Origin: Akkermansiaceae bacterium
GTDB lineage: Bacteria > Verrucomicrobiota > Verrucomicrobiia > Verrucomicrobiales > Akkermansiaceae
Assembly: GCA_026461385.1 (NCBI GenBank)
Contig: JAPJNB010000043.1
Location: forward strand, 4,718 to 68,717
Direction of reading: 5' to 3'
Length of the DNA stretch: 64,000 nt
Positions 33,628 through 52,139 of the stretch are shown here, one piece after another. Position numbers and translations under genes: made by a program. The notes below the pieces were generated by a model, which was not told the origin of the DNA, did not search any database, and saw nothing but the letters and a program-made list of their open reading frames with translations. The first letter of the stretch is position 1. Every line of letters starts with the position of its first letter.

Positions 33628-33641
33628 ACGAAACATTTCAT
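33628..33641 (-). promoter_or_regulatory. Candidate LacI operator upstream of lacI (autoregulation)
   Basis: Minus strand ATGAAATGTTTCGT, a 12/14 match to the ATGAAATGATTCAT site found three times downstream. Confidence 0.5.
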
Positions 33642-33938
33642 AGAAAATGGCAAGATTGGGCCGCCGAAACAGCAAGCCGCCCTTCAGTGGCGTGGAATAT
33701 TGCTCACGCCAAGTTTGGCCGTTTTGTCGTCGTAAATTTCAAAAACTTCCACGGTCAGGTGCATCATGGGATAAAACTCCCGCCTTGGGCGAGTGCCACG
33801 ATTCCATGGGCAGGCAGGAACCATTCGACCGTATTTTTGACTCGTTCGGCGGCTTTTCTTCCCAAATCGCCCCGCGTGAAGGCTTTCCGTAGCGGCGACG
33901 GTCCGAAACCGGATTTTTTGGCCGTTGGAATTTTTGCC

Positions 33939-33964
33939 TTGATTCAAACATGAAATGATTCATG
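33939..33964 (+). promoter_or_regulatory. Promoter/operator copy 1
   Basis: TTGATT-N5-ATGAAATGATTCATG upstream of the PEP-CTERM gene; the same layout recurs at 44196 and 48352. Confidence 0.7.
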
Positions 33965-34031
33965 TTGGATTCCTAGCTTCGCCAGTCAGCGAGCAATCCA
34001 AAGCAAAAACAACCTGAAAAACCCTTAGAAT

Positions 34032-34772
34032 ATGATCCCGAATATGAATATTAAGATTCTGACTCTTGCTGTAACCACCGTTGCCGCATTTTCACTCGTG
34101 CTCCAATCCGCCCACGCTGCTGTTTACTGGAACGGCAGCGTCAGCAGTGATTGGGCAGAAACGTCCAATTGGTCGGGCGGCCTGCCATCCACATCAGGTG
34201 CGGGCGATGCCATCATCAACCCCGGCTCACCCAATGTAAAACCAGTGATCAGCACCCCAGTGGCTGCCACCGTTGGGCAGACATACGTGTCCATTGGTGC
34301 GGGCTTGCAGGTTACCACGGGCGGAAGCTTGACCACCGTTAGTTTGATCACGGGGATCTGGGGCCATAGCGACGTCGTCGACGTCTCGGGGGGGAGCCTG
34401 ACTATCTCAAATAACTTGCTGCTGGGCTACTCTGGTTATGACGGAAAGATGAACATCTCCGGCGGCACGGTGACCGCCAACAATTTATCCATCAACATGG
34501 GTGGCGGAGCCAAGATGAACCTCGGCGGTTCGGGTGCCTTCATTGCGCCGGTCAGTAACCTCGGAAATATCAACTACTGGATCGCCAATAATGCCATCAT
34601 CGCGGGCAACGGTGCATCTGGATGGTCGGTCAACGTTGACACCACGAGCAATGCAGGCAACGTCGTTCTAACCGCAGTGCCGGAACCTTCGGTTTCCCTG
34701 CTGGCGGTTGGCGGAGCTTTGGGATGCTGTTTCCTGAGGTCGCGCCGGAAGAGCGCTTCCTTCCAGGATTGA
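34032..34772 (+). CDS. PEP-CTERM surface protein with a ~190-aa beta-rich domain
   Basis: Signal peptide ending SAHA; C-terminal VPEPS, a hydrophobic helix and basic RSRRK. Confidence 0.9.
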   Translation: MIPNMNIKILTLAVTTVAAFSLVLQSAHAAVYWNGSVSSDWAETSNWSGGLPSTSGAGDAIINPGSPNVKPVISTPVAATVGQTYVSIGAGLQVTTGGSLTTVSLITGIWGHSDVVDVSGGSLTISNNLLLGYSGYDGKMNISGGTVTANNLSINMGGGAKMNLGGSGAFIAPVSNLGNINYWIANNAIIAGNGASGWSVNVDTTSNAGNVVLTAVPEPSVSLLAVGGALGCCFLRSRRKSASFQD

Positions 34773-34836
34773 AATCAGCGATTTTCGACCCGCATCGAGT
34801 CCGCCCCACATCCCGAACGCTCGCTTTAACAACAAG

Positions 34837-37800
34837 ATGAGAATCACCCTCTTTTTCTCCGGCATCCGCTCCGGTTCGCGGCCTGTTTCAGGAGCCTCAC
34901 GGCAGAATGAAACTCTCAGCAGCCCGTCAGTTTTCAGTCATGAACTGAACGCTGTCGGAGGAGCTGAGGCATTGGCGGCGAATCGCAGCTTGGCGAGAAA
35001 ACCGAGAGTGAAGGCTGTGAAGCATTTTACGGGGTATTTCATCCGAGCCTTCTCGATCTTTCTCATGCTCACGCCTTCCGGATGGGCCGCCACGTCGACC
35101 TTGAGCACCAGCGGAGCATGGGCGACTGCGTCCAATTGGACACCGAGCGGTGTGCCGGGATCCACCTCCGATGTCGTGGTCAATGGGGCCAAATACGCCA
35201 TCGTTTCCACCAGTGCCGGCAGCATCAAGTCGATGGCCTTGGGGAATCAGTCGGGCGAGGGAGCCATCAACATGCGTGCGGGTGGCAACCTGACGGTGTC
35301 GAATGGGAGCGGGGTTTCTGTGGTGGTCGGTGGACCGGGAGCAGCTGGCAGCCAAGTAAGCCCCTACCCGGCGTACTACAGCCACGAAGATGGGAATTTC
35401 AGCACCACGGGGGACATGGTCGTCGGCACGAGCACGCTTTCTGGCCAAGCGTTTTTCAGTAAAGGCAAACTGAGCGTGGGTGGCAGGTTGAAAATTGGTG
35501 TCCAGACGGCAGGCGGCTCCGAGTTTAAAATCAACGGTGCCGGATCAGGTGTCTCGACTCTTGCCGTGAACGGGCTTGAAGTGGGCAGCAAGGGGACGCT
35601 GAACTTTGACTATCTGGGCGGCGCAGGAGTACTCGCGATTTCCGTCGCGAATCAGGTCAGCCTCAGCACCGGTTCGACCTTGATCGTTAGCAACGCCGCC
35701 GCTCTCCAAGCTGGGACATATAACTTGGTCAATGGAGGATCCATCTCCGGAACCTTTGGTGCCACGAACGTTTCGGGTCTGCCCACCTACATGTCTGCGG
35801 AAATTCAGTATGACGCCGCCAACGGGGATGTGAATTTGGTGGTAACCAATTCGATCACGGAATTTGACAATTATGATGGCGATGGATTGTGGTCGACGTC
35901 GCAGAACTGGAATCCCTTCTATCCCGATGCGACGTCTTTTGGAAGATTGCTGGCATTCGTGCAGGTCACGTCTGCGGTAGAAATTGGTTATCTCGAAATA
36001 GGAACCACACAGGCGAACTACGGGTTAAATCTGTGGGACGAGGCTGGATCACTGACCCTCAGCCGTGCAGGTGTTTCCTTGGTTGTTGGTGCCGCGAATA
36101 ATGCGGGCGGGGGTGCCAACTACCCAGGAGGAATCGGCTACCCAAATTACTATTCTCATGCCGCCGGAAGCTTGACCACGGTGGGCGACATGATCCTCGG
36201 CGCGAATGGCGCTAAGGTTGAGGCGTCTTTTTCTAGTGGATCGGTCAGCGTGGGAGGGACCCTCCGTTTGGGTTCATATCAAAGCTCAGGCGCATCGGTT
36301 TTTGAGTTAAGGGGCGGAGGCGGCACGCTTGCGACGCACGACCTCGAAGTGGGCGACGCGGGGAAACTTGTCTTCGACTTCATTGGCGGCGCTTCGTTGA
36401 AAATCATGCATGTCACCGGACAGGCTTCGATGATCTCGGGGGCTAAGCTCGCCATCAAAAACACATCACAGAACCCAGCCGCCATCACTCCCACCACCTA
36501 CGACTTGATCCAGGCCGACTCGATTGTCGGGACTTTCTCGCAGGTGGACTTTTCGGGATTCCCCTCGTCGGTTGTTCCTCGGATCGCGTATTCGGGCAAA
36601 AAAATTCAGTTGGTGGTTGAATCGGCTTCGGGTGCGCCCGTGGTGGATGCCGGAACTTCTCGGTTAAGCGGCTACAGCCGTGTCGCGCCCCTCGGCGCAG
36701 CGGGTTACTCGTTTGGAAGTGGGGCGGACGGGGAAGATATCTATTATTCCGATTATTCCGCCGGAACCATCACTCGGGTTTCGGGTGGAGTTTCCACCAC
36801 GCTGAAATCCAACTTGGTGGGGATTTATTCCTTAGCGGTGAAGGGAAATAAAATGTACTTCGCGCGTGAATATGACAGCAATTACGGAACCGCCAAAATC
36901 TTCGTCATGACCAAGAGCGGGGCCACTTGGGGAGATCCTGTGCAAGTGGTGGGTGGCTTGACGAGGCCGAGGCAGCTTTTTATCGAGAGTTCGGGCAGCC
37001 TGTTGTTAGCCGTGGAGGCATTGGCTCAGGGTCAAGGAGGAGCCATTCTCAGGATCACTCCGGCGACCGGTGCATCGACCACGTTGGTGACTGGACTTTA
37101 TGCACCGCAAGCGGTGGTTTCGGATGCTTCAGGCAATCTTTATTTCAACGAATACGGCAGCACCACGGCAGACGGCACTCCGACCTTATCGGGCAAGCTC
37201 TGGAAAATGGCCGCAGGGACAACCACCAAGACCCAACTCCTTGAGGGTCGCCGCCTCCGCGGATTGGCGTTGGTGCCGGGGAGTCCGGACCAGTTGGTTC
37301 AGCTGGCCGAGGCCAACAACAACGACCAAGGAAATTCCTCAACGACCTCCATCCTGACGACTTCGGGCACCCTGCTCCGGACGATCGAGGGGGTGGATTA
37401 TCCTCAGTTCACTGGGGTCACCGCCTCCGGGAATGTGGTGACCACCTGCCCGCGTGATCTGGCGCTCCTCAGCATTCTTCCGAACAGCAGTTCCGGATCG
37501 GATTCGGCCATCGCGCTTCGGACTGGGGTGGATTCATTTGCCTGCGTTCGCGGTCTCTCGTATCGGACCAGTGGAGAGGGAAGATTCCCCGTGACCCTCA
37601 CAGGAATGAAGGATGGTTCTTTGACATTCTATGTTTCCCCTAACTCTAACAGAAAATTTGCCGGCTGGATCCGAATGACTAAATCCCAGTGGCCAGGGAT
37701 ATCCACCAGCGAGCTGGTTTCGAATCCTGGATATTACGCTCTGCCCCAACCGGGAGTCCAGTGTGCGATTGGAACCTTGAATCGGCTGCAGATTTTTCCA

Positions 37801-39804
37801 CATCGCAGCAGGAACATTTCCCGCTGGCCGATGACGAATGTGGGAACCGCGCAAGAAGCGCCTCAGGTAGGTTTTTCTGAAGCTCCGGAAGCTTATCTTG
37901 CCTATGTCGAAATTTCAGAGCTTGCCATGACCCTTGCTTGGGATGGCGGCGGTGGTGCTGATGCGGCTTGGTCTACGGCGGCAAACTGGAGCGGAGATGG
38001 GTTGCCGGGTGCTTCCGACAACGTGTTGGCGAACGGCGGCGTCTATGTCACCAGTGCCGTGGGGCCGGTTGGCAATGTGGTGGTAGGCAATGCGGCCGGT
38101 AACGGTGCCCTCAACTTGGTTTCCCCAGGGAGCCTGAGCGCGGCATCCATCAAGATCGGCGAAGCAAACAATGCCGGAGGTGGCACTGGGTACCCGAATT
38201 ATTTCCGCGGAGATGGTGGAGCCATTACGACGACGGGCGACTTGGTGATCGGGGCGAGTGGTGCCAAAATCGATGGCGTCTACACATGGGGTAATATCAC
38301 CGTCGGTGGCGCCCTGAAGATCGGCGCTGGGTACGCGGATCCGGGCGGCTCAAGCTTATTGTTACGAGGCGCATCCAGCACGATCTCATCGAACAGTCTA
38401 ACGATTGGCGGCGGGGTGAAGTTGATCATGGACTTTATCGGAGGCAACTCGATGCGGACCTTGACGTCGACGGGAGCCGTGACCTTGGAGTCGGGATCGT
38501 CGATCAAGATTGTGGGCAATTCGAGCGTGGTGACGGGAAATAACCGGCGCTTGATCGATGGCGGCGCCGGTCAGTTGAGTGGAACATTTAGCAATGTGAC
38601 CTTTGAAGGGTTCTCATCCAACGTAGTCCCCAGTTTGGTCTATAACAGCACTGACGGAGATGTCTGGCTGGTGGTTTCCACTCGTGTGGTTTCTTGGGAC
38701 GCGGGTGGGGCAGCCGATCAGAAATGGTCCACGGTTGCAAACTGGAGCGGGGATGTCTTGCCGGGATCTGGGGACGATGTGTTGCTGAACGGTGGAGCTC
38801 AGGTGACAACGGCGGCGGGCCCGGTTGGGAACGTGGTGGTGGGAAATGCCAGTAGCAACGGAGCGTTGAACATGATTTCCCCGGGAAGTTTGACTGCTAC
38901 ATCCTTGACGATTGGGGCGGCCAACAACACCGGGGGAGGCACAGGATATTCGAACTACTTCTATGGGAATGGAGGCAATATTACGACGACGGGCGACTTA
39001 GTGATCGGGGCGAGTGGAGCGAAGATCGATGGCATCTACACATGGGGTAATATCAACGTTGGTGGCGCTCTAAAGATCGGCGCTGGGTACGCGGATCCGG
39101 GCGGCTCAAGCTTATTGTTACGAGGCGCATCCAGCACGATCTCATCGAACAGTTTAACGATTGGCGGCGGGGTGAAGTTGATCATGGACTTTATCGGAGG
39201 CAACTCGATGCGGACCTTGACGTCGACGGGGGCCGTGACCTTGGAGTCGGGATCGTCGATCAAGATTGTGGGCAATTCGAGCGTGGTGACGGGAAATAAC
39301 CGGCGCTTGATCGATGGCGGTGCCGGTCAGCTGAGTGGAACATTTAGCAATGTGACCTTTGAAGGGTTCTCATCCAACGTAGTTCCCAGTTTGGTCTATA
39401 ACAGCACCGACGGAGATGTTTGGCTGGTGGTGAGTGCTGGAGGAACCACGTTCGCATCTTGGTCAGGTTCTGCGGCTGCGGCAGACAGCATCTCCCTCAT
39501 GAAATATGGGGTCGGCGGGTCAGCGAGCCCCTCCGGGACTTCCGAAAAAATCGTCTTGTCCCTCGATACCACAAGCTTGTCGATCAGCGCGATTGTGCGG
39601 GTAGATGACGCCAAGCTGACGGTGGTGGGTCAGTCATCCACGAACTTGATTGGCTCTTGGACCGATCTATCCCAAAATCTAACAGGTTCCATTAGTTCCG
39701 ACCAGGCGGGAGTTCCTGCCGGTTGCCAACGGCGGATCTTCAGCATCAGCAAGGGGTCGAATCCGAAGATGTTCTTAAGACTCAAGGTCTTGATGAGCAA
39801 CTGA
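34837..39804 (+). CDS. Large secreted multidomain protein (beta-helix-like repeats, NHL/SMP30-like propeller, tandem 252-aa duplication)
   Basis: Open 1655-aa frame; probable start GTG 35008 before signal-like YFIRAFSIFLMLTPSGWA. Repeated W-S/A-T-A-x-N-W modules; propeller-like PQAVVSDASGNLYFNEY and PRQLFIESSGSLLLA; C-terminal FLRLKV tail. Confidence 0.85.
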   Translation: MRITLFFSGIRSGSRPVSGASRQNETLSSPSVFSHELNAVGGAEALAANRSLARKPRVKAVKHFTGYFIRAFSIFLMLTPSGWAATSTLSTSGAWATASNWTPSGVPGSTSDVVVNGAKYAIVSTSAGSIKSMALGNQSGEGAINMRAGGNLTVSNGSGVSVVVGGPGAAGSQVSPYPAYYSHEDGNFSTTGDMVVGTSTLSGQAFFSKGKLSVGGRLKIGVQTAGGSEFKINGAGSGVSTLAVNGLEVGSKGTLNFDYLGGAGVLAISVANQVSLSTGSTLIVSNAAALQAGTYNLVNGGSISGTFGATNVSGLPTYMSAEIQYDAANGDVNLVVTNSITEFDNYDGDGLWSTSQNWNPFYPDATSFGRLLAFVQVTSAVEIGYLEIGTTQANYGLNLWDEAGSLTLSRAGVSLVVGAANNAGGGANYPGGIGYPNYYSHAAGSLTTVGDMILGANGAKVEASFSSGSVSVGGTLRLGSYQSSGASVFELRGGGGTLATHDLEVGDAGKLVFDFIGGASLKIMHVTGQASMISGAKLAIKNTSQNPAAITPTTYDLIQADSIVGTFSQVDFSGFPSSVVPRIAYSGKKIQLVVESASGAPVVDAGTSRLSGYSRVAPLGAAGYSFGSGADGEDIYYSDYSAGTITRVSGGVSTTLKSNLVGIYSLAVKGNKMYFAREYDSNYGTAKIFVMTKSGATWGDPVQVVGGLTRPRQLFIESSGSLLLAVEALAQGQGGAILRITPATGASTTLVTGLYAPQAVVSDASGNLYFNEYGSTTADGTPTLSGKLWKMAAGTTTKTQLLEGRRLRGLALVPGSPDQLVQLAEANNNDQGNSSTTSILTTSGTLLRTIEGVDYPQFTGVTASGNVVTTCPRDLALLSILPNSSSGSDSAIALRTGVDSFACVRGLSYRTSGEGRFPVTLTGMKDGSLTFYVSPNSNRKFAGWIRMTKSQWPGISTSELVSNPGYYALPQPGVQCAIGTLNRLQIFPHRSRNISRWPMTNVGTAQEAPQVGFSEAPEAYLAYVEISELAMTLAWDGGGGADAAWSTAANWSGDGLPGASDNVLANGGVYVTSAVGPVGNVVVGNAAGNGALNLVSPGSLSAASIKIGEANNAGGGTGYPNYFRGDGGAITTTGDLVIGASGAKIDGVYTWGNITVGGALKIGAGYADPGGSSLLLRGASSTISSNSLTIGGGVKLIMDFIGGNSMRTLTSTGAVTLESGSSIKIVGNSSVVTGNNRRLIDGGAGQLSGTFSNVTFEGFSSNVVPSLVYNSTDGDVWLVVSTRVVSWDAGGAADQKWSTVANWSGDVLPGSGDDVLLNGGAQVTTAAGPVGNVVVGNASSNGALNMISPGSLTATSLTIGAANNTGGGTGYSNYFYGNGGNITTTGDLVIGASGAKIDGIYTWGNINVGGALKIGAGYADPGGSSLLLRGASSTISSNSLTIGGGVKLIMDFIGGNSMRTLTSTGAVTLESGSSIKIVGNSSVVTGNNRRLIDGGAGQLSGTFSNVTFEGFSSNVVPSLVYNSTDGDVWLVVSAGGTTFASWSGSAAAADSISLMKYGVGGSASPSGTSEKIVLSLDTTSLSISAIVRVDDAKLTVVGQSSTNLIGSWTDLSQNLTGSISSDQAGVPAGCQRRIFSISKGSNPKMFLRLKVLMSN
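37930..39431 (+). repeat. Intragenic tandem duplication, 756-bp period
   Basis: The W codons at 37939 and 38695 and the ATTACGACGACGGG starts at 38224 and 38980 are 756 bp apart. 38224-38675 versus 38980-39431 differ at about 16 positions by eye. Confidence 0.9.
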
Positions 39805-39871
39805 CCCATCAGCGGATGCACTCATCGATTCGTTTTCCCGGGGCGGGCGTAGGCCTCGGCCACTCAATTTC

Positions 39872-41770
39872 ATGTTAGACAGAAACACGACACTCATCAC
39901 GCTGGCCAATGCGCTCAAGCGACTCATCCATCCGAGGTGCATCCAGCTGTTGCTCCTTTGGATCGTCCTCATGCTTGCCTCCACCGAAACTCGCGCCCAA
40001 TCGCATCGGGCCGCGCAAGAGGTCGACTACAAGGTGGGATTTTTGGGTGCCCCCTGTCACCCGGAGGTGGAGTGGAATTCGGCGAATCTACAGCGCATGA
40101 AGGATCTGGGGTTCAATGTTCTGCAACTGAACATTGCTTGGGGTTATCGCCCCAATGATGAGGCCCTCAATCTCGAAGACGTGGTCGACTTGCCGATGGA
40201 AATTTCTCGCACGGCTGGCGACAAGAGCCGTGAGCCTATGCGAACTCCCGAAAGGATCGGCCGCCGGAGTGAAAAACTGCGGCAGCGGATCGACATCAGC
40301 CAGAAATTTGGATTTCGAACGATGTTCCATTTTGGAGCGCCGAATGTGTTGTATCCGCCGGAATCTCCGGGGGCACCTGGGGTGATTTTGGATCAGTGCA
40401 TTTCGGATCAAGCGACCCTCACAAGGTATATCATTCTCCTACGAGCGTTTCATGCCAAGTTCCCGGAGGTGGATGATCTGTTATGCTATACTTATGATCA
40501 AAATGCATGGCTCTGCAACGAGGTGGGAGCCTGTCGCAAGTGCCGTGGTGTTCCGTTGGCCAAGCGGGTTTCTAACTTCATCAACACTTTGGCTCGGACC
40601 TGGCGTGAACTCAACCCAGCGGGCACCTTGTTCTGGGAGCCTTGGGAACTTTCCGCAGGCCAGGCGTATCAGTCCGTTGATTTGCTCGATCCATCCTGTG
40701 TGGGGCTTTCGCTGCACTCCAACATTGCGGAAGTCCAAATTGCCTTCCCGGCGGACCGCTGGTTCAAAAACATGCTGACCAAAGCGGAGGAAAGGAAAAT
40801 ACCTGTCCTTGGGGAGTTGTGGACCGGCAGCCCCACCGAGGAGATGGAACCATTTCTGCACATCGCCACCCCGCTGGCCACGCTACGTGCTCTTCGCGCG
40901 GTGAACGAGGCGGGAAAGCTCAAAGGGATCAAAGAATACTATGGCAACGTGCCGGATCAAGAAGACCCTAACCTGCGCATGTCGGGCCTGTTCTTTAAAA
41001 ACCCAAACATCGGTGATGATGAGGCACTCGTGCAGTTGGCCTCGCCCTACGGTGACGCCGCTGAAGAGGTTGCGAAGGTTTGGAGGCTGACCTCCGAAGC
41101 GGTGGAAATGTACCCGTGGGACGTTTCCTGGTTGGCTCGGGAAGTCGGACGAAGTACCCCCAAGCACGCGCTGAGCGCAGCGATTCTGAAGGGCGCCAGT
41201 TGGCAGACGCCGAGTTGGCAGGCCAACCGCAGAGTCGACTTCATGAGAACCGACGAGACAGCGGCACCAAACTTCTGGATGTGTGAAGATGTTCAATTGC
41301 GGTTTGAGCAAACGGCCCATAAACTCGATGCCAGCATTCAGGCGGCCGAGGCCGTGCAACGCAAAGTCCCGGAAATCTATCAGAAAGATTTCGCCAAGAG
41401 CATCGAGGAACTGAAGGCCTTCCGTGTCCGCGTGCTGGCCTATGCCTACCACCTTCGAGAGACAAATCTAACCAATCTAATGCGCGGGGACGTCCAGCAG
41501 GGACTTGAGTTGAATCAAGAAAACATCCGGGCACTCAGAGAAGTGATGTTGAAAGATCAGCAAAACATGGGAAGCAAGGAACCGCTCGGGACTGCGATCC
41601 AGATGCTTGATGCGGATCTTAAAAAATTTCTAACAACCTACTTCCTTCCTTGGTCAGAATCCACTAAAAATCAGGATTGGGCTGAATGGGGGAGCGCCGC
41701 GAACTGGACGATCACATCGCCCAACGAGTTCTTTGAAACACACATAAATGACCATGGGAAAAACGATTAA
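39872..41770 (+). CDS. Secreted protein of unknown function, TIM-barrel glycoside-hydrolase-like; paralog of the C-terminal part of 44319-46676
   Basis: Signal-like IQLLLLWIVLMLASTETRA; LQRMKDLGFNVLQLNIAWG resembles the first strand/helix of clan GH-A-like barrels; YTYDQNAWLCNEVGACRKC. Confidence 0.6.
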   Translation: MLDRNTTLITLANALKRLIHPRCIQLLLLWIVLMLASTETRAQSHRAAQEVDYKVGFLGAPCHPEVEWNSANLQRMKDLGFNVLQLNIAWGYRPNDEALNLEDVVDLPMEISRTAGDKSREPMRTPERIGRRSEKLRQRIDISQKFGFRTMFHFGAPNVLYPPESPGAPGVILDQCISDQATLTRYIILLRAFHAKFPEVDDLLCYTYDQNAWLCNEVGACRKCRGVPLAKRVSNFINTLARTWRELNPAGTLFWEPWELSAGQAYQSVDLLDPSCVGLSLHSNIAEVQIAFPADRWFKNMLTKAEERKIPVLGELWTGSPTEEMEPFLHIATPLATLRALRAVNEAGKLKGIKEYYGNVPDQEDPNLRMSGLFFKNPNIGDDEALVQLASPYGDAAEEVAKVWRLTSEAVEMYPWDVSWLAREVGRSTPKHALSAAILKGASWQTPSWQANRRVDFMRTDETAAPNFWMCEDVQLRFEQTAHKLDASIQAAEAVQRKVPEIYQKDFAKSIEELKAFRVRVLAYAYHLRETNLTNLMRGDVQQGLELNQENIRALREVMLKDQQNMGSKEPLGTAIQMLDADLKKFLTTYFLPWSESTKNQDWAEWGSAANWTITSPNEFFETHINDHGKND

Positions 41771-44120: not shown

Positions 44121-44195
44121 CCACTGGCCCGGAGCCTTACGAACCGCATTTGACGAGGCGAATCCCGCGGAAAAGCTGGCGGATGAAAATTCTTC

Positions 44196-44221
44196 TTGAC
44201 CCTTATATGAAATGATTCATG
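44196..44221 (+). promoter_or_regulatory. Promoter/operator copy 2
   Basis: TTGACC-N5-ATGAAATGATTCATG. Confidence 0.7.
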
Positions 44222-44318
44222 TTGAGCTGGAGCAAGCTAGGTTTACCCAATTTGGACTCACGCAAAAACCACCCGAAAAACCCCGCCCCGCATCCGGAAC
44301 CATCGACTTACCAACAGA

Positions 44319-46676
44319 ATGAGAAACTACAGAATAAAAAGTTATAGAATGAAAAACGATAGAATTGCCACGGTCGCAGCGACGGCATTCGCATTGCTTC
44401 CGGCAGTCCTTCAAGCCGATGTTTTCTGGAACGGCGCGGCGAGCGGCGATTGGTCTGATGCCGCGAATTGGAAGGGCGGCCTGCCATCTCAGGCGGATGC
44501 GGGAAACGTGGTCATCAATCCGGGGTCACCTTTTGCGGAACCGGTCGTCAAGACGCCGGGCGTGATTACGGCAGGGCAAACCTATCTATCCATTGGTGCC
44601 AGTTTGAGCATCGCGAACGGCGGAGAAATGACCACGACCGATTTGGTCACTGGGAGCTGGGGGGATAGCTCGACGGTATCCGTCAAGGGCGGAACCCTGA
44701 ACATCCGTGGCATTCTGAATTTGGGGGCCGGTGGTCATGATGGTGATGTGAAGGTCTCGGGTGGTTTGGTTAGAGCATCCGGTCTATCCATCAATGGTAC
44801 CAGTGGAGCGACTCTGGACATCTCTGACTCCGGGTCCGTCATTCTGCCAGCCAGCCAGCTGGACAACATCGGTCACTGGGTGGAAAGCAACAGCATCACC
44901 GCCAACGGCGGAGCCGCTGGATGGTCCTTGCGCATCGATTCCAAGAGCCAACCCGACAAGGCCATCATCAAAGCGGTGTTCACCCCGCCGCTCACCGATC
45001 TCATCACGGGATGCAAACACAAGCAGCCCGAAGGTGGAAAACCCAAGGATTGTTGCCGGGGAAATTATCAATATTTCGTAGGAATCGTCGGAAATCCGTT
45101 GGTGCCGGAAATCAGATGGAGCGATGATGAACTCGAGAAAATCAAGGATCTCGGCGTCAACATGGTGCAGCTCAGCATCGCATGGGGCGGCAAGCCTGCC
45201 AATGAAGTCCTCAATCTCGAGGATCTCGATGATCCTGCACAGCGGGAGAAATTCGCATTCCGGATCTCACAGGCGAAAAAGCATGGACTCAAGACGCTCG
45301 CCCATTTCGGCATCCCGCGGGCAGTGAACGCGAATCCCGTGCGCCCCGCGTGCATTCTCGATTCGGAGGTGTGTGCGAAATATACGGCAAGGATCAAGGC
45401 GTTCATGACAGACTTCCCCGGGGTCGATGATGTCCTCGTTTACACCTTCGACCAGCAGGCGTGGCTGTGCAGTGAATTCGGCCCATGCCCACGCTGCAGC
45501 GGCATCCCCGTCGGCGAGCGCCTGCCGGCCTTCCTCGACATGCTCAACGACGCCATGCGTTCGGTTCGGCCAAGCTCCAGACTCTGGTGGAAACCGTGGG
45601 AGTTGTCGCGGGGCCAAGTGGTGACGGTTCTCGAGCGGGTCAAGGCCGAGGGCTTCGGCTTGGCACTCAACCCGTCCACCAGCAACGAGGTCTATCCATT
45701 CAACGACCGATCCTTTGCCTCCGATCTGGGCGTGAAACGCATGGTGCGCTCCGCCTATGAGCGCGGGATTCCCGTACTGGGCGAGTTCGATCACACATTC
45801 TACAAGCCATCTTACGCAATCGAGGACTTCTTCCCACGCCTGATCTTCGAACAAATGCAGGGTTGGAAAGGAATGGAGGGGATTGTCGGCGTGAAGGAAT
45901 ACTTTGGTTTCGCTCCATCCACGTTCTCTGTTAATTGCGCCATGCTCAAAGCGTGGATGAGGTCGCCGGATGCCAAGCTCGACACGCTGCTCCAAGAAAT
46001 CGTCACGCCATACGGCAAGGCTGCGGCTCCGCACATGATCGCAGCATGGGAATATGTTGCTCAATCGGTTGAAGCTTTCCCGTGGGACACCACCTATCTA
46101 ATCGGCCCGATGGGACTGGACCGCGGAAGTGACGGCTCACACGACTGGAAACCCGTGACGATCTCGAGCGGCACGTGGGACACGCCGATCTGGAAGACGA
46201 ACCGCCGTGGGAATTTCATGCTGACCGATGCACCCAAGGCGCATCCGTGGCTGTTTGAAGATGCCGGGCTCCGGTTGGAAGATTCCGCCGCCCTCGCTTT
46301 CAAGGCAGCGGACTTGTTCGAAAAAGCCATTGCCGCCGGTGGGGAACGCGCCGATGATATCCGCAAGCAACTGGAAATCACCCGCAGGATGGCCCGCTCC
46401 ATCCGCATGAAATCTCTCCATTTCCTCCAGACTCTTGCCACCCAAGACGCACGCATGGTTCAGCATGATCCAAAACAATTCCCGATCGTCATCCAGCGCC
46501 TCGAAGGCCTGCTGAAGAGGGATGTGAAAAACCAAGGCGGGCGTGCCGAGGTGGCTCAGAAACTCGCCGAGCTGCAGAGCAATCCAAAGGCGTGGCTGAG
46601 CACCAACTACCTGCCCTTCGAATACGAGACCAAGACGGTCATCGATTGGAGTCGCTGGATACCGCGCCAAGACTGA
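44319..46676 (+). CDS. Secreted fusion: shared ~190-aa N-terminal domain plus the unassigned TIM-barrel-like enzyme domain
   Basis: VFWNGAASGDWSDAANWKGGLPS...VINPGSP matches 34032 and 48448; VGIVGNP...IKDLGVNMVQLSIAWG...NLED and YTFDQQAWLCSEFGPCPRC match 39872. Confidence 0.8.
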   Translation: MRNYRIKSYRMKNDRIATVAATAFALLPAVLQADVFWNGAASGDWSDAANWKGGLPSQADAGNVVINPGSPFAEPVVKTPGVITAGQTYLSIGASLSIANGGEMTTTDLVTGSWGDSSTVSVKGGTLNIRGILNLGAGGHDGDVKVSGGLVRASGLSINGTSGATLDISDSGSVILPASQLDNIGHWVESNSITANGGAAGWSLRIDSKSQPDKAIIKAVFTPPLTDLITGCKHKQPEGGKPKDCCRGNYQYFVGIVGNPLVPEIRWSDDELEKIKDLGVNMVQLSIAWGGKPANEVLNLEDLDDPAQREKFAFRISQAKKHGLKTLAHFGIPRAVNANPVRPACILDSEVCAKYTARIKAFMTDFPGVDDVLVYTFDQQAWLCSEFGPCPRCSGIPVGERLPAFLDMLNDAMRSVRPSSRLWWKPWELSRGQVVTVLERVKAEGFGLALNPSTSNEVYPFNDRSFASDLGVKRMVRSAYERGIPVLGEFDHTFYKPSYAIEDFFPRLIFEQMQGWKGMEGIVGVKEYFGFAPSTFSVNCAMLKAWMRSPDAKLDTLLQEIVTPYGKAAAPHMIAAWEYVAQSVEAFPWDTTYLIGPMGLDRGSDGSHDWKPVTISSGTWDTPIWKTNRRGNFMLTDAPKAHPWLFEDAGLRLEDSAALAFKAADLFEKAIAAGGERADDIRKQLEITRRMARSIRMKSLHFLQTLATQDARMVQHDPKQFPIVIQRLEGLLKRDVKNQGGRAEVAQKLAELQSNPKAWLSTNYLPFEYETKTVIDWSRWIPRQD

Positions 46677-46687
46677 CAATCCATTCC

Positions 46688-47407
46688 ATGACGGACGCCA
46701 TGCGAAATCAATCGAAACCCACCCAAGGCTTCACGCTCGTCGAGTTGCTGATCGTCATTGCCATCGTGGCGGTGCTGGCGGCGGTTACCATGTCGGTCTC
46801 ACGCAGGATGATGGCATCCGCAAATGAAACGGTGTGCGCGGCCAATCTTCGCGGCCTGGCCACAGCCCTCAACAGTTATGCTGCGGAAAACAACGGGGTT
46901 TTCCCCGTCTCCGACCAAGGCAACCGATCACCAAGCAACTGGATTGTGGCGCTTCTGGACGGCGAGTATCTCAACGCAAAGCAAGGGGACACCCAGCGCT
47001 CTTTCGTCAACAGCCGGGGGAAGAACGGCCTCTTCTGCCCCGCCGCAATCCGCGTGGCGAAGCCTTTGGACGGCAACTGGAACACCTATGCAATGAACGT
47101 TCAAGCAGGCGGCTGGTATCAATCCGCAGGCCAGGCACCGGCCGCACGCTTGCCGCGTGTCCAGTATCCGGCGGAAACCGCTCTCGTCATGGACGGCTGC
47201 AGGGTCAGCGGGAATTATTACGTGACGACGGTGGGCCGCGCCGACTGGTTTCCCGAGATGGTGCATCCACCCGAACTGCTCAACCAACCCAAGGATCTGA
47301 ATCGGGGTGCCAACGTGGCTTTTGTCGACGGCCATACGGAATTTCGCAAAGTTTCAAAAATTCCCACCGATACCACCGGAGTTTTTTGGAGTGGCATCAA
47401 GCCTTGA
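46688..47407 (+). CDS. Prepilin-type N-terminal cleavage/methylation domain protein with an H-X-DG tail
   Basis: KPTQG|FTLVELLIVIAIVAVLAA; ETVCAANLRGL; C-terminal GANVAFVDGH. Start ATG 46688 or 46700 rather than 46592. Confidence 0.88.
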   Translation: MTDAMRNQSKPTQGFTLVELLIVIAIVAVLAAVTMSVSRRMMASANETVCAANLRGLATALNSYAAENNGVFPVSDQGNRSPSNWIVALLDGEYLNAKQGDTQRSFVNSRGKNGLFCPAAIRVAKPLDGNWNTYAMNVQAGGWYQSAGQAPAARLPRVQYPAETALVMDGCRVSGNYYVTTVGRADWFPEMVHPPELLNQPKDLNRGANVAFVDGHTEFRKVSKIPTDTTGVFWSGIKP

Positions 47408-47447
47408 ATGAGACTCACGAGATGAATCTAACGGAAAAAATGCGATT

Positions 47448-48308
47448 ATGATGAATCAGATCCGTTCGATGGCCATCGGGGCGACACTGTCATTGATCCA
47501 ACCCGCATCCGCGGAACTTCCCATGCTGGAACAGCCATGGCTCGGCTACTTCGCAGTCGCACAGGAACGAAACTTTCAGTTTTTGTTCAGCTCGAAAGGC
47601 GGCTTCAACCTCATGGTCCTCGATCATCAAGGCGCTCCGATTCAGCAATCCATCGGCCTGCAATTCCTCGGATTGGAAACTCTCCCAGATGGCAGCATCA
47701 AGGAATTGCCGATGGCATTGGACACCTTTGAATCCTCGGATCCACCCACCGCCAAGCTCAAGAAGACGGTTTTTAGATTCAAATTGACCGATCAGGCGAC
47801 CGGCCAAGCGATCGGCCAACCTACCATGGAGGGCACCATCGAGATCATCAGCGGGACCGTTCTTGCCAACGCTCGGATCATCGACAAGGGAGCATCCGAT
47901 AAAAACCCCATTCAACCGGTGATCCGTACGATCTTCACGGCCTTCTACGTGAATGAGAACATTCACAAAGAATCTTGGGACAGGAAACAAGTCAAAGAGT
48001 TCGAAAAGCGGATCGGCGCAGATTCCGTAACCTTAAAACACCTCGATGAGAAACGGGTCAAACTGGTCTGCGTTGATAAGACCGATCCAAAATCCAAGGA
48101 GGTGAACGGCGGCGGCAGTTCCTTGGCTGAGGTGGAGATCAGTTTCTATCAGAAGCGGAAAATTGAGCTTCTTGCCGCCCCCAACTCATCGCTCACCCTT
48201 TGCAATGCGGGCCCGGCTCCACTCCACCATGGCTTCTGGTTCCAATGGTCCGCCGATGCCGCCAAAGACCCCGATGGCAAAGCCAAACTCGCGCTCAGGA
48301 TCCAATAG
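47448..48308 (+). CDS. Secreted hypothetical protein
   Basis: Signal peptide AIGATLSLIQPASA; 286-aa open frame co-oriented after the pilin-like gene; no motif recognised. Confidence 0.7.
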   Translation: MMNQIRSMAIGATLSLIQPASAELPMLEQPWLGYFAVAQERNFQFLFSSKGGFNLMVLDHQGAPIQQSIGLQFLGLETLPDGSIKELPMALDTFESSDPPTAKLKKTVFRFKLTDQATGQAIGQPTMEGTIEIISGTVLANARIIDKGASDKNPIQPVIRTIFTAFYVNENIHKESWDRKQVKEFEKRIGADSVTLKHLDEKRVKLVCVDKTDPKSKEVNGGGSSLAEVEISFYQKRKIELLAAPNSSLTLCNAGPAPLHHGFWFQWSADAAKDPDGKAKLALRIQ

Positions 48309-48351
48309 CCCCAACTGACCCAAGGTCGGATCGAAGATTGGAATTTCTAAC

Positions 48352-48377
48352 TTGACCACGATATGAAATGATTCATG
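48352..48377 (+). promoter_or_regulatory. Promoter/operator copy 3
   Basis: TTGACC-N5-ATGAAATGATTCATG. Confidence 0.7.
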
Positions 48378-48447
48378 GTTGCCGCTGTTGATTCGCCTCC
48401 AATCGTAAAATTCCGCCAAAAAACGAACACTCACAAACCCAAAACAC

Positions 48448-50655
48448 ATGAACCCCAAACGCAAGAACACGGCCATTGCATTGACCACCATGGCTCTCAT
48501 TTCACTATCTTTTGAATCCGCCCGCGCCGCCGTTTACTGGAACGGTAGCGTCAGCAGTGATTGGGCAGAAGCCTCCAACTGGACAGGCGGCTTGCCATCC
48601 ACATCGGGTGCGGGCGATGCCATCATCAACCCCGGCAGCTCACCCAATGAGAAGCCCGTGATCAGTTCCGCAGTGGCTACCACCGTTGGGCAGACTTACG
48701 TGTCCATCGGTGCGGGTTTGCAGGTTACCACGGGCGGAAGCTTGACCACCGTTAGTTTGATCACGGGGATCTGGGGCGACAGCAACGTGGTCGATGTCTC
48801 GGGAGGAACCCTGACCATCTCAAATAACCTGCTGCTGGGCTACGGCGGCTATGATGGGAAAATCAATATCTCTGGCGGAACGGTGACTGCCAACTATCTA
48901 TCCATCAACACGACACGCGGAGCCAAGATGAACCTCGGTGGCACAGGTTCCTTCATCGCGCCCGCCAGCAACCTCGGCAACATCAACTATTGGATCGCAA
49001 ACAATGCGATTATCGCCGGCAACGGCGCAGCCGGATGGTCGGTGGTGGCTGATACTACTAGCCTCTCGGGCAAGGTGATCCTTACCGCCTTCAATCCGAA
49101 CAATGTTTTCACGGCTGCCAACAACAACAACTACGCCGAGAGTGGCAATTGGAACAACGGGCTCGTTCCGACCTCTGCCCAGTCCGCCTTCATCAACCAG
49201 CACCGCACGGCGGAACTCAGCACCAACCCGTCGCCGAACCAGCCGGGAAGCCTCTACGTCGGTCAGGGAACCGGCAGCGAAAGTGGCACATTGGAGGTCT
49301 CCTCAGCCGGAGTTCTGAGCCCGGGCAATCTGCTCATCGGTCGCGACGGATCCAGCTCTGGAACGATCAACCAATCGGGCGGCACGGTCACGGTGACCGG
49401 CGGGACGTTCGGCATCAGCAGCAATTCTAATGGCGCAGGCAGTTATCACTTGTCCGGTGGCACCCTTGCGGCGACTTCAGCCCCCCTGTGGCTGGGCTAC
49501 GGCACCGGAACTACCACCGGCACCGGCAACTTCACGATGAGCGGCGGCACGCTGAGCCTCGGCTCCTATTTCAGCGCAGCCTTCGCCAGTGGCACAAAAG
49601 CCAATGTGTCATTCAGCGGCGGCAACGCGACGATCGCCGGCAGCCTCACGGTCGGACGTCAGGGCAAGGGGCTTGCCGAAATTTCCGGCACCGCCTACGT
49701 CAACCCCGCCACGCTGCAAGTCGTCGAGTCCGGTGAGGGTGCCGCCGATTCCACGCTGACCGTCAGTGGAGGAACGCTCGCCGTGAGCCGCCAGATCAAT
49801 GTCGGCAATTCCGTCGATACCGGAGTGGCATCTAGCATGGTCATCAGCGGAGGCGCAGTTACTTGGCACGCGGACGGCCAGACCTCCGGATTGTTCAGCG
49901 TTTACAGCGAGGTGAAGGTCAGTGGCAATTCGGCAACGATCGGCAGTAACGCGTCGACCGATGCTCTCTTCAACGTTCGCGCCACTGGTAAACTGCGCTA
50001 TCAACTTGCTGCCAATGGCTCGGTTGCGTTGATCAACGTGCCCAACGCCACGATGGGAATTGCCCAAGGCGCGCAGTTGATCATCGACGGCTCGGCACTC
50101 TCACTCGGCGCTGGTACTTACTCGATCACCTTGGTGGATCACAATGGCTACTCGGCTGCCGCTGCTTTCGGTGCCACGAGCATGTCACACAGCTTTGTTG
50201 GCTTCGGACTGACTTGCACACCGACGATCAGTTACGACGCGTCTGCCATCACCTTGCATCTATCGGTGGGCGGTGGCTCCGACTATGATTCGTGGAAAAG
50301 CACCAACAATTTGACTGGCGGACCAAATGCCGACGACGATGGAGATGGTGTGAAAAACTCCGACGAATACGCTTTCGGCCTCAATCCGAAGTCCGGAAGC
50401 TCGGCCAACCCGATCAGTTCTGCGGTCGACAAGGCGACCGGCATCTTCAAGTACACCCGTCGCAAGCAGTCGCTCACCGGGGTAGCTTACACCTATGAGT
50501 CGTCCACCACGCTTACGGGCACATGGCCGGCCTTCACTCCAAACTCTGCTACCTCTAACAATGGCGATCCCATCGAAGAAATTACCGTCGATGTGCCAGA
50601 CGCGTTGCTGACCCATCCCGCGCTGTTTATCCGCGTGAAAGCCGTCCAGCCATGA
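48448..50655 (+). CDS. Secreted beta-helix-like protein with the shared N-terminal domain and a C-terminal DxDGDG/sorting-like domain
   Basis: N-domain nearly identical to the PEP-CTERM gene (AVYWNGSVSSDWAE...NYWIANNAIIAGNGA); Gly/Thr/Ser-rich SGGTL repeats; tail DDDGDGVKNSDEYAFGLNP...FIRVK. Confidence 0.85.
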   Translation: MNPKRKNTAIALTTMALISLSFESARAAVYWNGSVSSDWAEASNWTGGLPSTSGAGDAIINPGSSPNEKPVISSAVATTVGQTYVSIGAGLQVTTGGSLTTVSLITGIWGDSNVVDVSGGTLTISNNLLLGYGGYDGKINISGGTVTANYLSINTTRGAKMNLGGTGSFIAPASNLGNINYWIANNAIIAGNGAAGWSVVADTTSLSGKVILTAFNPNNVFTAANNNNYAESGNWNNGLVPTSAQSAFINQHRTAELSTNPSPNQPGSLYVGQGTGSESGTLEVSSAGVLSPGNLLIGRDGSSSGTINQSGGTVTVTGGTFGISSNSNGAGSYHLSGGTLAATSAPLWLGYGTGTTTGTGNFTMSGGTLSLGSYFSAAFASGTKANVSFSGGNATIAGSLTVGRQGKGLAEISGTAYVNPATLQVVESGEGAADSTLTVSGGTLAVSRQINVGNSVDTGVASSMVISGGAVTWHADGQTSGLFSVYSEVKVSGNSATIGSNASTDALFNVRATGKLRYQLAANGSVALINVPNATMGIAQGAQLIIDGSALSLGAGTYSITLVDHNGYSAAAAFGATSMSHSFVGFGLTCTPTISYDASAITLHLSVGGGSDYDSWKSTNNLTGGPNADDDGDGVKNSDEYAFGLNPKSGSSANPISSAVDKATGIFKYTRRKQSLTGVAYTYESSTTLTGTWPAFTPNSATSNNGDPIEEITVDVPDALLTHPALFIRVKAVQP

Positions 50656-52139
50656 ACCTCATGGTGGCGTCCGCCCTTGCAGCGCTCCTACTGGCTCTGC
50701 CATGGGACGCTTGCAGGGCGGATGCGGTGCGCAGCAAGCCCAATATTCTATTTCTTCTAACAGATGATCAGCGTTGGGATACGCTCGGGTGCATGGGAAA
50801 CCCCGTGATCCAAACCCCGAACCTCGACCATCTCGCCGCTCAGGGGATCTTGTTTCGCAACGCGTTTGTCACCGCTTCCGTGTGCAGTGTGAGCCGAGCC
50901 GCCATCCTGACCGGTGCTTATCCGTGCTCGCGCGGAACGAAGGATCTAGCAAAAATGGTGACTCCCAAGGAGGTAAACGCGACCTACCCAGCTGTTTTGC
51001 GTGCGGGTGGCTATGACACCGGCTACATCGGCAAGTGGGATGTGGGGGTGGGCGAGGACGGGTTCCGCATGGGCATGAACCTTTTTGATTACTGGGCCGG
51101 AGACCGCTTTCACGGCAACTATTGGCATGAGGCGGACTGCCCACTGGTGACCAACGAGGGTCGTCAGTCCAAATCGGAAATCAAATGCACCTGCACCCCG
51201 GAAGGATCCATGCCACGCATCGGTTCCGCAGGCATGAATCATCCTATCCACTTTGACCGTGAGATCGTTCCGGTCAAGATGAGGCAGTATCTTGCAGGGC
51301 GTGACAAAGCGAAACCGTTTTTCTTGGCCATCGCATTTCGCGGACCCAAGGACCCATGGGCGGACTACCCGAAAAATGTCGCCGAGCTTTATGCTTCTAA
51401 CACCATGCCCATCCCGGCCACGGCGACAACGGCGGATGCCATGCGCCAACCCGCTTTCCTGCGGGCTTCCATGGGGAGTGAGGCCGGCTTTTCGCGGGTC
51501 AGTAATCCTGCCACCCTGGCCGATGAACTGCGGAAAAACTACCGGTTAGTTTCTAACATCGATGATACGATTGGAGAACTTCGTCGGATTCTAGTAGAGC
51601 AAGGACTGGATTCTAACACCATCATCGTCTTCACCTCCGACAACGGGCATTTTCACGGGGACCACGGTTTCTGGGGCAAATGGCTGCCTTACGAGGAATC
51701 CATTAGGGTGCCATTGGTCGTTTTTGATCCCCGCCTGTCGGAGCAGCAGCGTGGCGTGACACGCGGAGAGATGATTCTCAATGTCGATCTCGCACCAACC
51801 TTTCTGACGTGGGCCGGTTTACCCGTCCCTTCGACCATGCAGGGCAGGGACTTTGCACCGCTGGAGGGTGGCGGCAGCCCGCCATGGCGTGAGGACTTCT
51901 ATCACGAGTTCACTTGGACCGCGGAAGGACGGATTGCCCCGAGCGAAGGCATCCGGTCAGCTCAGTGGAAATACATCCGCTATCCTGGCCAAAATCCCGT
52001 GGTGGAGCAGTTGTTCAATCTACAAAACGATCCCGGTGAAACGACGGATCTCATCGCCGACCCCGCCCATTCCACCGCACTTGAGTCGCTACGAATCAAG
52101 CTCGAGGCCCACAGGACCCATCTCTCCGCGGTAAACTGA
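50652..52139 (+). CDS. Secreted sulfatase (S1 family)
   Basis: KPNILFLLTDDQR, VCSVSRAAILTG (formylglycine motif variant), YIGKW, FTSDNG, GKWLPYEESIRVP and LFNLQNDPGE. ATGA overlap with the upstream stop. Confidence 0.92.
   Translation: MNLMVASALAALLLALPWDACRADAVRSKPNILFLLTDDQRWDTLGCMGNPVIQTPNLDHLAAQGILFRNAFVTASVCSVSRAAILTGAYPCSRGTKDLAKMVTPKEVNATYPAVLRAGGYDTGYIGKWDVGVGEDGFRMGMNLFDYWAGDRFHGNYWHEADCPLVTNEGRQSKSEIKCTCTPEGSMPRIGSAGMNHPIHFDREIVPVKMRQYLAGRDKAKPFFLAIAFRGPKDPWADYPKNVAELYASNTMPIPATATTADAMRQPAFLRASMGSEAGFSRVSNPATLADELRKNYRLVSNIDDTIGELRRILVEQGLDSNTIIVFTSDNGHFHGDHGFWGKWLPYEESIRVPLVVFDPRLSEQQRGVTRGEMILNVDLAPTFLTWAGLPVPSTMQGRDFAPLEGGGSPPWREDFYHEFTWTAEGRIAPSEGIRSAQWKYIRYPGQNPVVEQLFNLQNDPGETTDLIADPAHSTALESLRIKLEAHRTHLSAVN

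Follow-up and report, generated by a model that had tools for sequence, protein, structure and literature searches.

Why should one secreted domain of about 187 residues lead three operons of a single gene cluster, joined each time to a different C-terminal partner? The question is raised by a stretch of 64,000 nt (hereafter the window; GenBank assembly GCA_026461385.1, contig JAPJNB010000043.1, positions 4,718 to 68,717) from a freshwater, Akkermansiaceae-like bacterium. The answer that we favour, tentatively and somewhat short of an even chance, is that the domain may be a non-catalytic glycan-binding module, present on a surface-anchored protein and as the appendage of an enzyme; all the evidence collected here would be consistent with a part in binding substrate, or in assembly, on the cell surface. 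Several findings speak for glycan binding: the enzyme fused to the second copy resembles carbohydrate-active folds, and a sulfatase, an MFS_2 transporter, the L-rhamnose isomerase RhaA and the transporter RhaT lie nearby; the domain has a discrete fold, a secreted N-terminal position, a rare and locus-specific occurrence, fusions to other proteins and no catalytic signature. In addition, it is under purifying selection, and the core of the operator-like motif upstream of it is invariant at nine sites in four genomes, next to a LacI gene. The three genes that carry the domain are the following:

34032-34772, + strand: copy 1, 246 aa; signal peptide (34032-34118), domain (34119-34679) and, without a linker, a PEP-CTERM anchor
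44319-46676, + strand: copy 2, 785 aa; signal peptide, domain (44418-44978), a Cys-containing linker and an enzyme part, here called enzC
48448-50655, + strand: copy 3, 735 aa; signal peptide, domain (48529-49092), diverged module repeats and a DDDGDG tail

An earlier note on this DNA, made from the letters alone, had described three copies of the module and three different C-terminal partners. We recovered all three copies at positions that agreed to within 3 nt with those given, and likewise the three partners (PEP-CTERM in copy 1, a barrel enzyme in copy 2, a repetitive region plus tail in copy 3). According to the hidden Markov model (HMM) of the domain, it covers residues 30-216 of copy 1, 34-220 of copy 2 and 28-215 of copy 3 (~187 aa), and in all three the mature protein starts with it, right behind the signal peptide. 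The signal peptides are of the Sec type and differ among the copies, as the note had seen, each ending at an AxA-type cleavage site that abuts the domain. Copy 2 was also correctly described as the more diverged: the amino-acid identity of the domain is 86% between copies 1 and 3, compared with 48% between copies 1 and 2 and 51% between copies 3 and 2 (tblastn E-values among the three, 1e-54 to 1e-97). A tblastn search of the whole window detected no fourth strong copy, only weak echoes in a neighbouring protein of 1655 aa (hereafter big1655) and in the downstream part of copy 3. Copy 2 probably starts at M11 (44349), because a public protein that is 99% identical to it (P0269; L and P numbers denote the loci and proteins compared) has 775 aa.

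The three partners are of different kinds. Copy 1 ends with VPEPS, a hydrophobic stretch and RSRRK (its sequence closes with ...TAVPEPSVSLLAVGGALGCCFLRSRRKSASFQD), and this is the layout of a PEP-CTERM signal, in which a PEP motif is followed by a hydrophobic helix and a basic cluster. In the model of copy 2 (predicted local distance difference test, pLDDT, 75.7), the enzC part (~545 aa) forms a (beta/alpha)8 barrel with an added helical bundle, and a low-confidence linker separates it from the domain. Beyond its domain, copy 3 continues as a Gly/Ser/Thr-rich repetitive region with weaker repeats of the module (HMM match at residues 235-356, E=8e-6). The tail of copy 3 (50250-50655) has the motif DDDGDGxxNxxEYxxGxNP, which resembles a thrombospondin type-3 calcium-binding repeat, and after it a region of ~90 residues; the tail matched no known sorting-signal family, and a similar tail follows the domain in L021.

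What kind of fold is this domain likely to have? Pfam and NCBIfam hold no family for it and gave at most sub-threshold matches to PEP-CTERM, DUF3389 and DUF2807, while PDB sequence searches with profiles of 3 and of 60 sequences returned nothing significant (best match Mfa5, E=0.02). The AlphaFold2 model of copy 1, built on an alignment of 60 sequences, had a pLDDT of ~97 over residues 30-216 and comprised about a dozen short strands, one helix (residues 174-185) and a terminal hairpin. On this model the domain is predicted to be a discrete unit that folds on its own. The helix (NLGNINYW) is the most conserved stretch of the family, and a W-x-G...W....NW motif is also among its best-conserved parts. 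Three consecutive segments of 22-24 residues are built on a (V/I)SGG(S/T)(L/V)T motif, with a fourth that is more diverged. DUF2807 matched weakly in 8 out of 60 members (best E=9.8e-6), and weak matches were found for Beta_helix_2 and Beta_helix_3 as well. The strand pattern, the 22-24-residue repeats, these weak DUF2807 and Beta_helix matches and the presence of PATR (PF12951) in some partner regions (P0128 and P0130) point to a short beta-solenoid. The domain itself and copy 3 had no PATR match, and Pfam and NCBIfam scans found a C-terminal beta-barrel translocator in none of the three proteins. Foldseek searches with the copy-1 model gave nothing at E<=0.001 in PDB or BFVD, with a query that included the signal peptide and the anchor helices, which may have hurt the search; the weak PDB matches were Ag43 (TMq 0.31, E=7.7; the best by TM-score) and SepA (E=5).

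In a set of 62 sequences, filtered so that identity stays below 80%, conservation falls on Gly, on aliphatic residues and on Trp/Tyr; the only charged positions conserved are D137 (85% acidic) and D203 (97%). No column contained at least 60% K/R and none at least 60% His. Catalysis is disfavoured because no basic residue or His is conserved.

The domain is rare: a HMMER search of 1.84 billion cluster representatives recovered 21 clusters at E<1e-30 and 153 at E<1e-3. It starts within the first 80 residues in 164 out of 172 full-length matches, and 129 of the 172 are proteins of at most 300 aa, the commonest form being a PEP-CTERM protein of ~240 aa; PF07589, the Pfam PEP-CTERM family, matched 50 out of 60 sampled relatives at E<=1 (best 2.2e-7). 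The other architectures were fusions to enzC, to PATR-containing repetitive regions, to a CBM9 carbohydrate-binding module (CBM) plus immunoglobulin (Ig) domains, to Ig domains and to big1655-like regions. Three proteins carried two full tandem copies (P0121, P0124 and P0127), and a weak family member (P0159) had a tail of the type IX secretion system (T9SS). In a 965-aa protein of L006 the domain is followed by further, weaker module repeats, as in copy 3, and weak profile matches extend to giant repetitive proteins of 1000-5000 aa. The carriers in GTDB are all metagenome-assembled genomes (MAGs), from Akkermansiaceae, Verrucomicrobia subdivision 3, Pirellulales, Planctomycetaceae and one Hydrogenedentota; each has 1-2 loci with the domain, and the closest genome is Akkermansiaceae KT_bin-0034. 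The number of GTDB genomes is a lower bound from a scan based on sequence patterns. Planctomycete loci (L020, L016 and L030; Pirellulales/Planctomycetota MAGs) hold a fixed set of three domain paralogues, the first with a PEP-CTERM end, the second with a PPKPxxxxAP tail of 10 residues and the third joined to a big1655-like region of ~520 aa; each is 83-98% conserved between genomes, against only 52-58% identity to the other two of its locus. In L004 (15226-15582), a 119-aa open reading frame (ORF) that overlaps the start of the p790 gene, described below, contains only the first ~28 residues of the domain.

Which genes, then, accompany the domain? In the window, the neighbours of the three copies are the following:

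32410..33558, - strand: LacI-family regulator (Pfam LacI helix-turn-helix plus Peripla_BP_1/3/4), divergent from the first operon
34837..39804, + strand: big1655, 1655-aa secreted repetitive protein with internal 756-nt tandem modules weakly like the domain
39872..41770, + strand: p632, 632-aa paralogue in the enzC family (phmmer E~1e-80 between p632 and enzC homologues)
41748..44120, + strand: p790, 790-aa putative glycoside hydrolase (GH) with weak GH65_N, GH95_C and DUF5703 similarity
46592..47407, + strand: pseudopilin-like protein (prepilin-type N_methyl, weak H-X9-DG)
47448..48308, + strand: 286-aa protein without family match; orthologue in L011
50652..52139, + strand: sulfatase (Pfam Sulfatase plus SGSH_C), sharing 4 nt with the end of copy 3 and belonging to its operon
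52096..53580, - strand: MFS_2 (GPH-type) sugar transporter, kept beside the sulfatase in L001, L008 and L012
53742-55172, - strand: sugar-isomerase-like gene
55237-56139: AraC regulator
56492-57760: L-rhamnose isomerase RhaA, just downstream of the locus
57813-58988: RhaT transporter, likewise just downstream

Two tandem modules of big1655 (37934-38233 and 38690-38989) recur with a 756-nt period at 69% DNA identity and show some likeness to the domain (tblastn E=1.5e-5); in relatives from Planctomycetota and subdivision 3 the domain is fused to a big1655-like C-terminal region. As judged by sequence, the locus holds two members of one uncharacterised, highly conserved GH-like family, p632 and the enzC part of copy 2 (44979-46676). 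Members of this family are 62-74% identical, and most of them, from Verrucomicrobiota and Planctomycetota, are stand-alone proteins of ~585 aa. For enzC, searches of Pfam, NCBIfam and PDB sequences gave no family, and homologues that are named at all go under 'hypothetical protein' in every source; p632 had no Pfam or PDB sequence match, and PDB sequence searches with p790, p632 and the isomerase-like gene found nothing. The fold of the enzC model was matched by Foldseek to the GH138 rhamnogalacturonan-II alpha-galacturonidase, to GH67 and GH115 alpha-glucuronidases and to GH20 (E 1.8e-9 to 1e-7) with a probability of 1.0, yet with TM-scores of 0.32-0.38 and 9-13% identity. As enzC is similar to these glucuronidases and galacturonidases, uronic acid may be part of the polymer degraded, and a rhamnose-containing substrate is suggested because RhaA and RhaT adjoin the locus (L004 and L008 carry RhaA or RhaT too). 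Going by the gene content as a whole, the substrate is probably a sulfated polymer with rhamnose and uronic acid.

This neighbourhood is a constant companion of the domain. Among 21 GTDB loci, 19 contained at least one family of the window cluster (enzC, p790, p632, big1655-like, sulfatase, isomerase, MFS_2 or AraC); enzC or p790 was present in about 14 of the 21. The pattern extends over Akkermansiaceae, subdivision 3, Pirellulales, Planctomycetaceae and Hydrogenedentota. All metagenomic loci examined also place the domain gene beside the gene set of the window. The p790 gene adjoins the domain in many loci across phyla, prepilin-type genes are present in the verrucomicrobial domain loci, and the domain and enzC are separate neighbour genes in Planctomycetota and subdivision 3 and fused in Akkermansiaceae. 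The earlier note had named as the finding that would count against it a generic N-cap, spread throughout the genome and with no link to the operator. The domain is not of that kind: it is linked to this locus type and to its regulatory motif, and a generic N-cap is ruled out by the small family, the 1-2 loci per MAG, the constant neighbourhood and the absence of the domain from a second cluster of the window with GH16, pilin, MFS_2 and LacI genes (239-9144).

Are the three units also controlled together? Each copy is preceded by one of three identical operators, as had been noted before: the 14-mer ATGAAATGATTCAT, an imperfect palindrome, is identical at 33950, 44207 and 48363, inside a 30-nt motif that was found three times in the window versus 0 expected by chance. 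The full motifs are:

33925..33967, + strand: motif 1, TTGGAA..CTTGA-N7-ATGAAATGATTCATG; imperfect palindrome, putative LacI operator
44182..44224, + strand: motif 2, inherited from a PEP-CTERM gene deleted here
48338..48380, + strand: motif 3; the same motif stands before the copy-3 orthologue in L008 and L011

The distance from the motif end to the ATG is 69, 99 and 72 nt for copies 1, 2 and 3, respectively. In (C)ATGAAATGATTCATG, inverted arms of 5-7 nt surround a 4-nt centre. The core ATGAA.TGATTC.T is the part invariant at all nine sites, and a TTGACC hexamer lies 5-6 nt upstream of it at seven out of nine; the exceptions are copy 1 of the window, with TTGATT, and the big1655 site of L012, which differs. 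The TTGACC spacing would fit an operator that overlaps the promoter, and a sigma-70 scan of the three upstream regions returned no full or canonical promoter. The putative operator does not have the central CG typical of many LacI operators. The position of the LacI gene is conserved in L001, L004 and L012, and we infer that all three units may be under LacI control through the shared palindrome. A fourth, weaker operator-like site (ATGAAATGTTTCGT, 33628-33641, - strand, 2 mismatches) is present in the interval from the LacI gene to copy 1 and might serve autoregulation, yet it is within chance expectation (0.42 expected).

How the three copies arose is a separate matter. The earlier note had pointed to long identical DNA stretches in copies 1 and 3 and had proposed that a promoter-plus-domain cassette was duplicated and shuffled. 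The identical stretches are there, as exact matches 60, 30, 24 and 22 nt in length; the longest (34305-34364, the same as 48718-48777) is longer than expected from a shuffle of codon columns (P=0.002). The DNA similarity between these two copies is confined to the domain (34105-34630 and 48515-49043) and the 43-nt motif, excluding the 5' untranslated region (5'UTR) and the signal peptide, although neutral flanks would be unrecognisable anyway because dS is 0.60. The ratio of nonsynonymous to synonymous substitution rates (dN/dS) is 0.13 for this pair and about 0.3 against copy 2; the domain is under purifying selection.

Both fusions predate this genome, because they have orthologues in relatives: the domain-enzyme fusion in L001, L011 and L012, and the domain-repetitive-protein fusion in L011 and in L008, where it has the same operator. 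Copy 2 falls in a clean orthologous clade (91% identical to L011, 72-76% to L012 and L001), and in L001, L011 and L012 its orthologue directly follows a PEP-CTERM copy that carries the operator. Compared with L011 (KT_bin-0034, which has four domain copies), the region upstream of copy 2 is a chimera: its promoter, operator and 5'UTR start match the upstream region of the L011 PEP-CTERM gene, and the rest matches the L011 spacer between the PEP-CTERM gene and the enzyme gene. The PEP-CTERM gene between p790 and copy 2 is gone at this deletion junction (window 44121-44318 versus L011 9730-10960). The chimeric upstream region thus indicates that the window lost a PEP-CTERM gene and that copy 2 inherited its operator. 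A recent cassette duplication that gave rise to all three copies is ruled out for copy 2 by the deletion junction, and an origin of both fusions in this genome is ruled out by the orthologues in L001, L008, L011 and L012. What survives of the cassette proposal is a single duplication of a unit of promoter plus PEP-CTERM gene, which is suggested because a 5'UTR block, (C)GCAAAAAC.ACC.GAAAAACCC, is common to the leaders of copies 1 and 2 (34003-34024 and 44262-44283, 91% over 22 nt).

The orthologue of copy 3 in L008 (P0123) has the same operator and the same downstream sulfatase. It is 85% identical to copy 3 outside the domain and 72% inside, compared with the 86% that the copy-3 domain shares with copy 1. 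At the DNA level, paralogues are 83.5% (copies 1 and 3) and 87.6% (two L011 copies) identical, versus 83.5-85.6% for orthologous pairs, so that paralogues of one genome equal or exceed orthologues in similarity; the paralogues also have patches in common that are 93-98% identical. Together with the domain-only drop to 72% against the orthologue, the long identical runs point to gene conversion between copies 1 and 3 as the explanation of the identical stretches. In L011 (14830-17122), the orthologue of copy 3 is split into two overlapping ORFs, by a frameshift or an assembly error.

The chain of events that we infer for this locus would run as follows. Through its PEP-CTERM signal, and by way of an exosortase, the stand-alone copy of ~240 aa would be displayed at the cell surface, and the domain would bind the target glycan of the locus. 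The polymer would thus be retained at the surface by the anchored copy, and the enzyme and the fibre-like protein would be brought to it by the copies fused to them. After desulfation, the products would enter the cell through MFS_2 and RhaT and be catabolised via RhaA. The adjacent LacI protein would repress all three transcription units via the shared palindrome.

How well does glycan binding stand against other roles? The layout of the family is CBM-like, with a linker fusion to the GH-like enzC, an association with CBM9 in P0132 and no conserved residues of a catalytic type. A number of points weigh against it. The conserved residues look structural and do not form an evident polar or aromatic binding site, and Pfam, NCBIfam and PDB sequence searches revealed no similarity to any known CBM family. 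For surface display, PF07589 scored only 17.6 bits on copy 1, below its gathering cut-off of 20.7, and no exosortase gene was found among the ORFs of the window that were scanned. From the enzyme side, four sampled loci with a stand-alone enzC had no domain within 10 kb; because most enzC proteins are stand-alone and these four loci are without the domain, the enzyme does not need it, and the association is one-way. Finally, diverged paralogues (48-58% identity) are retained side by side in one locus, which a single shared ligand would not obviously need and which hetero-oligomeric assembly would fit as well. The main rival to glycan binding is a docking role, which we consider unlikely, in which the domain would bind itself or its paralogues and the anchored copy would be a surface scaffold that captures domain-bearing proteins such as the enzyme, big1655-like proteins and the repetitive protein, by analogy with cohesin-dockerin pairs or with the head-to-tail self-association of Ag43-type beta-helices. 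An anchored stand-alone copy does lie beside a larger domain-bearing protein in the window and in L001, L006, L011 and L012, and planctomycete loci keep their stable set of three diverged paralogues; in other loci, however (e.g. L004, L013 and L027), the stand-alone copy has no fused partner within 10 kb. The conversion tracts of copies 1 and 3 would be compatible with a homotypic interface, but homogenisation also occurs without interaction, and copy 2, only 48-51% identical to copies 1 and 3, shows none with copy 1. The best PDB match by TM-score, weak as it is, is the self-associating Ag43 (TMq 0.31), but that match is not significant (E=7.7). A full cellulosome-like surface assembly in bacteria of the Planctomycetes-Verrucomicrobia-Chlamydiae (PVC) group, in which the exosortase-anchored copy would recruit enzymes and fibre-like proteins through a single beta-solenoid-like module, seems to us rather doubtful.

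Two further roles are less likely than both glycan binding and docking. The domain might be a structural or export element, an N-cap or stalk that serves as the specialised opening segment of a beta-solenoid passenger and has no ligand of its own, kept for the start of folding or for recognition at outer-membrane export, perhaps by machinery related to the co-encoded pseudopilins. This is improbable in our view, even though the domain is nearly always the mature N-terminus, weaker module repeats follow it in copy 3 and in the 965-aa L006 protein, weak profile matches reach repetitive proteins of 1000-5000 aa, the W-x-G...W....NW motif is among the most conserved, and pseudopilin genes occur in the verrucomicrobial loci. 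The commonest architecture, domain plus anchor, would be a cap with nothing to cap; a flexible linker joins the domain to a TIM-barrel enzyme that is mostly found without it; two full tandem copies occur in P0121, P0124 and P0127; and the domain is limited to one catabolic locus type and does not appear in the GH16/pilin cluster. A small catalytic beta-helix, for example an esterase or a polysaccharide lyase (PL) the size of PL3, would attack the same polymer and make copy 2 bifunctional. In size the domain comes near the smallest beta-helix lyases, its loci are always degradative, and the polymer may hold uronic acid, given the likeness of enzC to alpha-glucuronidases and galacturonidases. 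Nevertheless, with D137 and D203 alone as charged conserved sites, no conserved basic residue or His, and no match to any PL, carbohydrate esterase (CE) or GH family, a catalytic role appears very improbable.

If glycan binding is taken as the working answer, the obvious comparison is with CBMs and the SusE/F-type surface glycan-binding proteins (SGBPs) of the polysaccharide-utilisation loci (PULs) of Bacteroidota. There too a non-catalytic module occurs on a surface-tethered non-enzyme and on an enzyme, in one substrate-specific locus with a sugar-responsive regulator, transporters and sulfatases. In contrast to the Bacteroidota PULs, the present locus has no SusC/SusD pair and its anchor is PEP-CTERM rather than a lipid; unlike CBMs and SGBPs, the domain is predicted to be beta-solenoid-like rather than a beta-sandwich and matches no CBM family. 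We take the 'choice-of-anchor' families of NCBIfam to be cases of one extracellular domain with alternative C-terminal ends, and the ends found here (PEP-CTERM, a short PPKP tail, a T9SS tail in the weak member P0159, or none) are similar, but none of those NCBIfam models matches and the domain is also fused to an enzyme. As in cohesin-dockerin cellulosomes, an anchored non-catalytic protein is encoded together with enzymes that carry a recognisable module; here, however, one module is on both sides instead of two complementary ones, there is no similarity in sequence or fold, and no Pfam match to cohesin or dockerin was found at the locus. The PATR and DUF2807 'GIN' adhesin-head beta-helices have short repeats with a comparable SGG-x-L/V-x-I/V pattern. 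Autotransporters differ in having a C-terminal beta-barrel translocator, which is absent here, and the domain has its own family-specific helix NLGNINYW and no Pfam match above threshold.

For copy 1, the floc-associated PepA of Zoogloea and Aquincola, a surface protein of the PEP-CTERM/exosortase type (PMC9850573; exosortase trafficking, PMC12188702), has a similar build: a small domain stands between a signal peptide and a C-terminal end made up of PEP motif, transmembrane stretch and basic cluster, with presumed export to the cell exterior. The NCBIfam model floc_PepA matched weakly (E=0.0075). Unlike PepA, which belongs to an RpoN-dependent regulon of extracellular polysaccharide biosynthesis, the gene heads a putatively LacI-controlled catabolic operon, and the same domain also occurs on enzymes without an anchor. 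A pilin-like 'fishing-rod' hypothesis has been put forward for polysaccharide capture in Planctomycetes (Boedeker et al. 2017, via PMC12078418). In the form in which it is related there, it resembles our case in that prepilin-type genes are embedded in the domain loci, but pilin-like genes are also present in the GH16 cluster without the domain, so that the coupling is not specific.

The finding is ordinary in kind, since accessory modules common to the proteins of one PUL are frequent. What differs from this familiar theme is that the shared module is found in PVC bacteria, with a PEP-CTERM anchor and with concerted evolution between copies. In fresh water and in the sea, Verrucomicrobiota and Planctomycetota are major degraders of the sulfated polysaccharides of algae and cyanobacteria. 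To our knowledge, they are without the SusC/D machinery that accounts for glycan capture in Bacteroidota, and how they hold polymers at the surface is largely unknown. The domain marks a conserved, multi-phylum locus built almost wholly from unannotated families, since by our searches the domain, enzC/p632, p790 and big1655 are all families of this kind. In the literature on PEP-CTERM together with Verrucomicrobia, PULs or glycoside hydrolases, we found no description of the domain or of the locus. At 187 aa, confidently modelled and easy to express, the domain is a concrete candidate for a component of surface binding or surface assembly. Should it bind glycan, it would be the first of a new CBM-like family and an aid in finding the substrate of a widespread, uncharacterised GH-like family; if it docks, it would be a new way to organise enzymes on a Gram-negative surface.

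The second PUL-like cluster of the window (239-9144), which is organised like the studied locus, has no domain copy and consists of the following genes:

239-2146: GH16 enzyme
2245-2991: prepilin-type protein
3017-4507, - strand: MFS_2 transporter
4372-7839, - strand: 1155-aa protein without family
8101-9144, - strand: LacI regulator

Between the two clusters, a set of genes on the - strand (13607-18848) resembles an imuA-imuB-dnaE2 mutagenesis cassette, with a DnaE2-like error-prone polymerase (13607-16852), an ImuB/IMS-like protein (16729-18408) and a small upstream ORF (18213-18848). The region 20108-31884 holds a chemotaxis operon (CheA, a methyl-accepting chemotaxis protein, CheR and CheB), followed by a response-regulator adenylate/guanylate cyclase (27492-28706). 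After the cyclase come a protein with a metallo-beta-lactamase fold and an ABC exporter with a C-terminal cyclic-nucleotide-binding domain (29710-31884).

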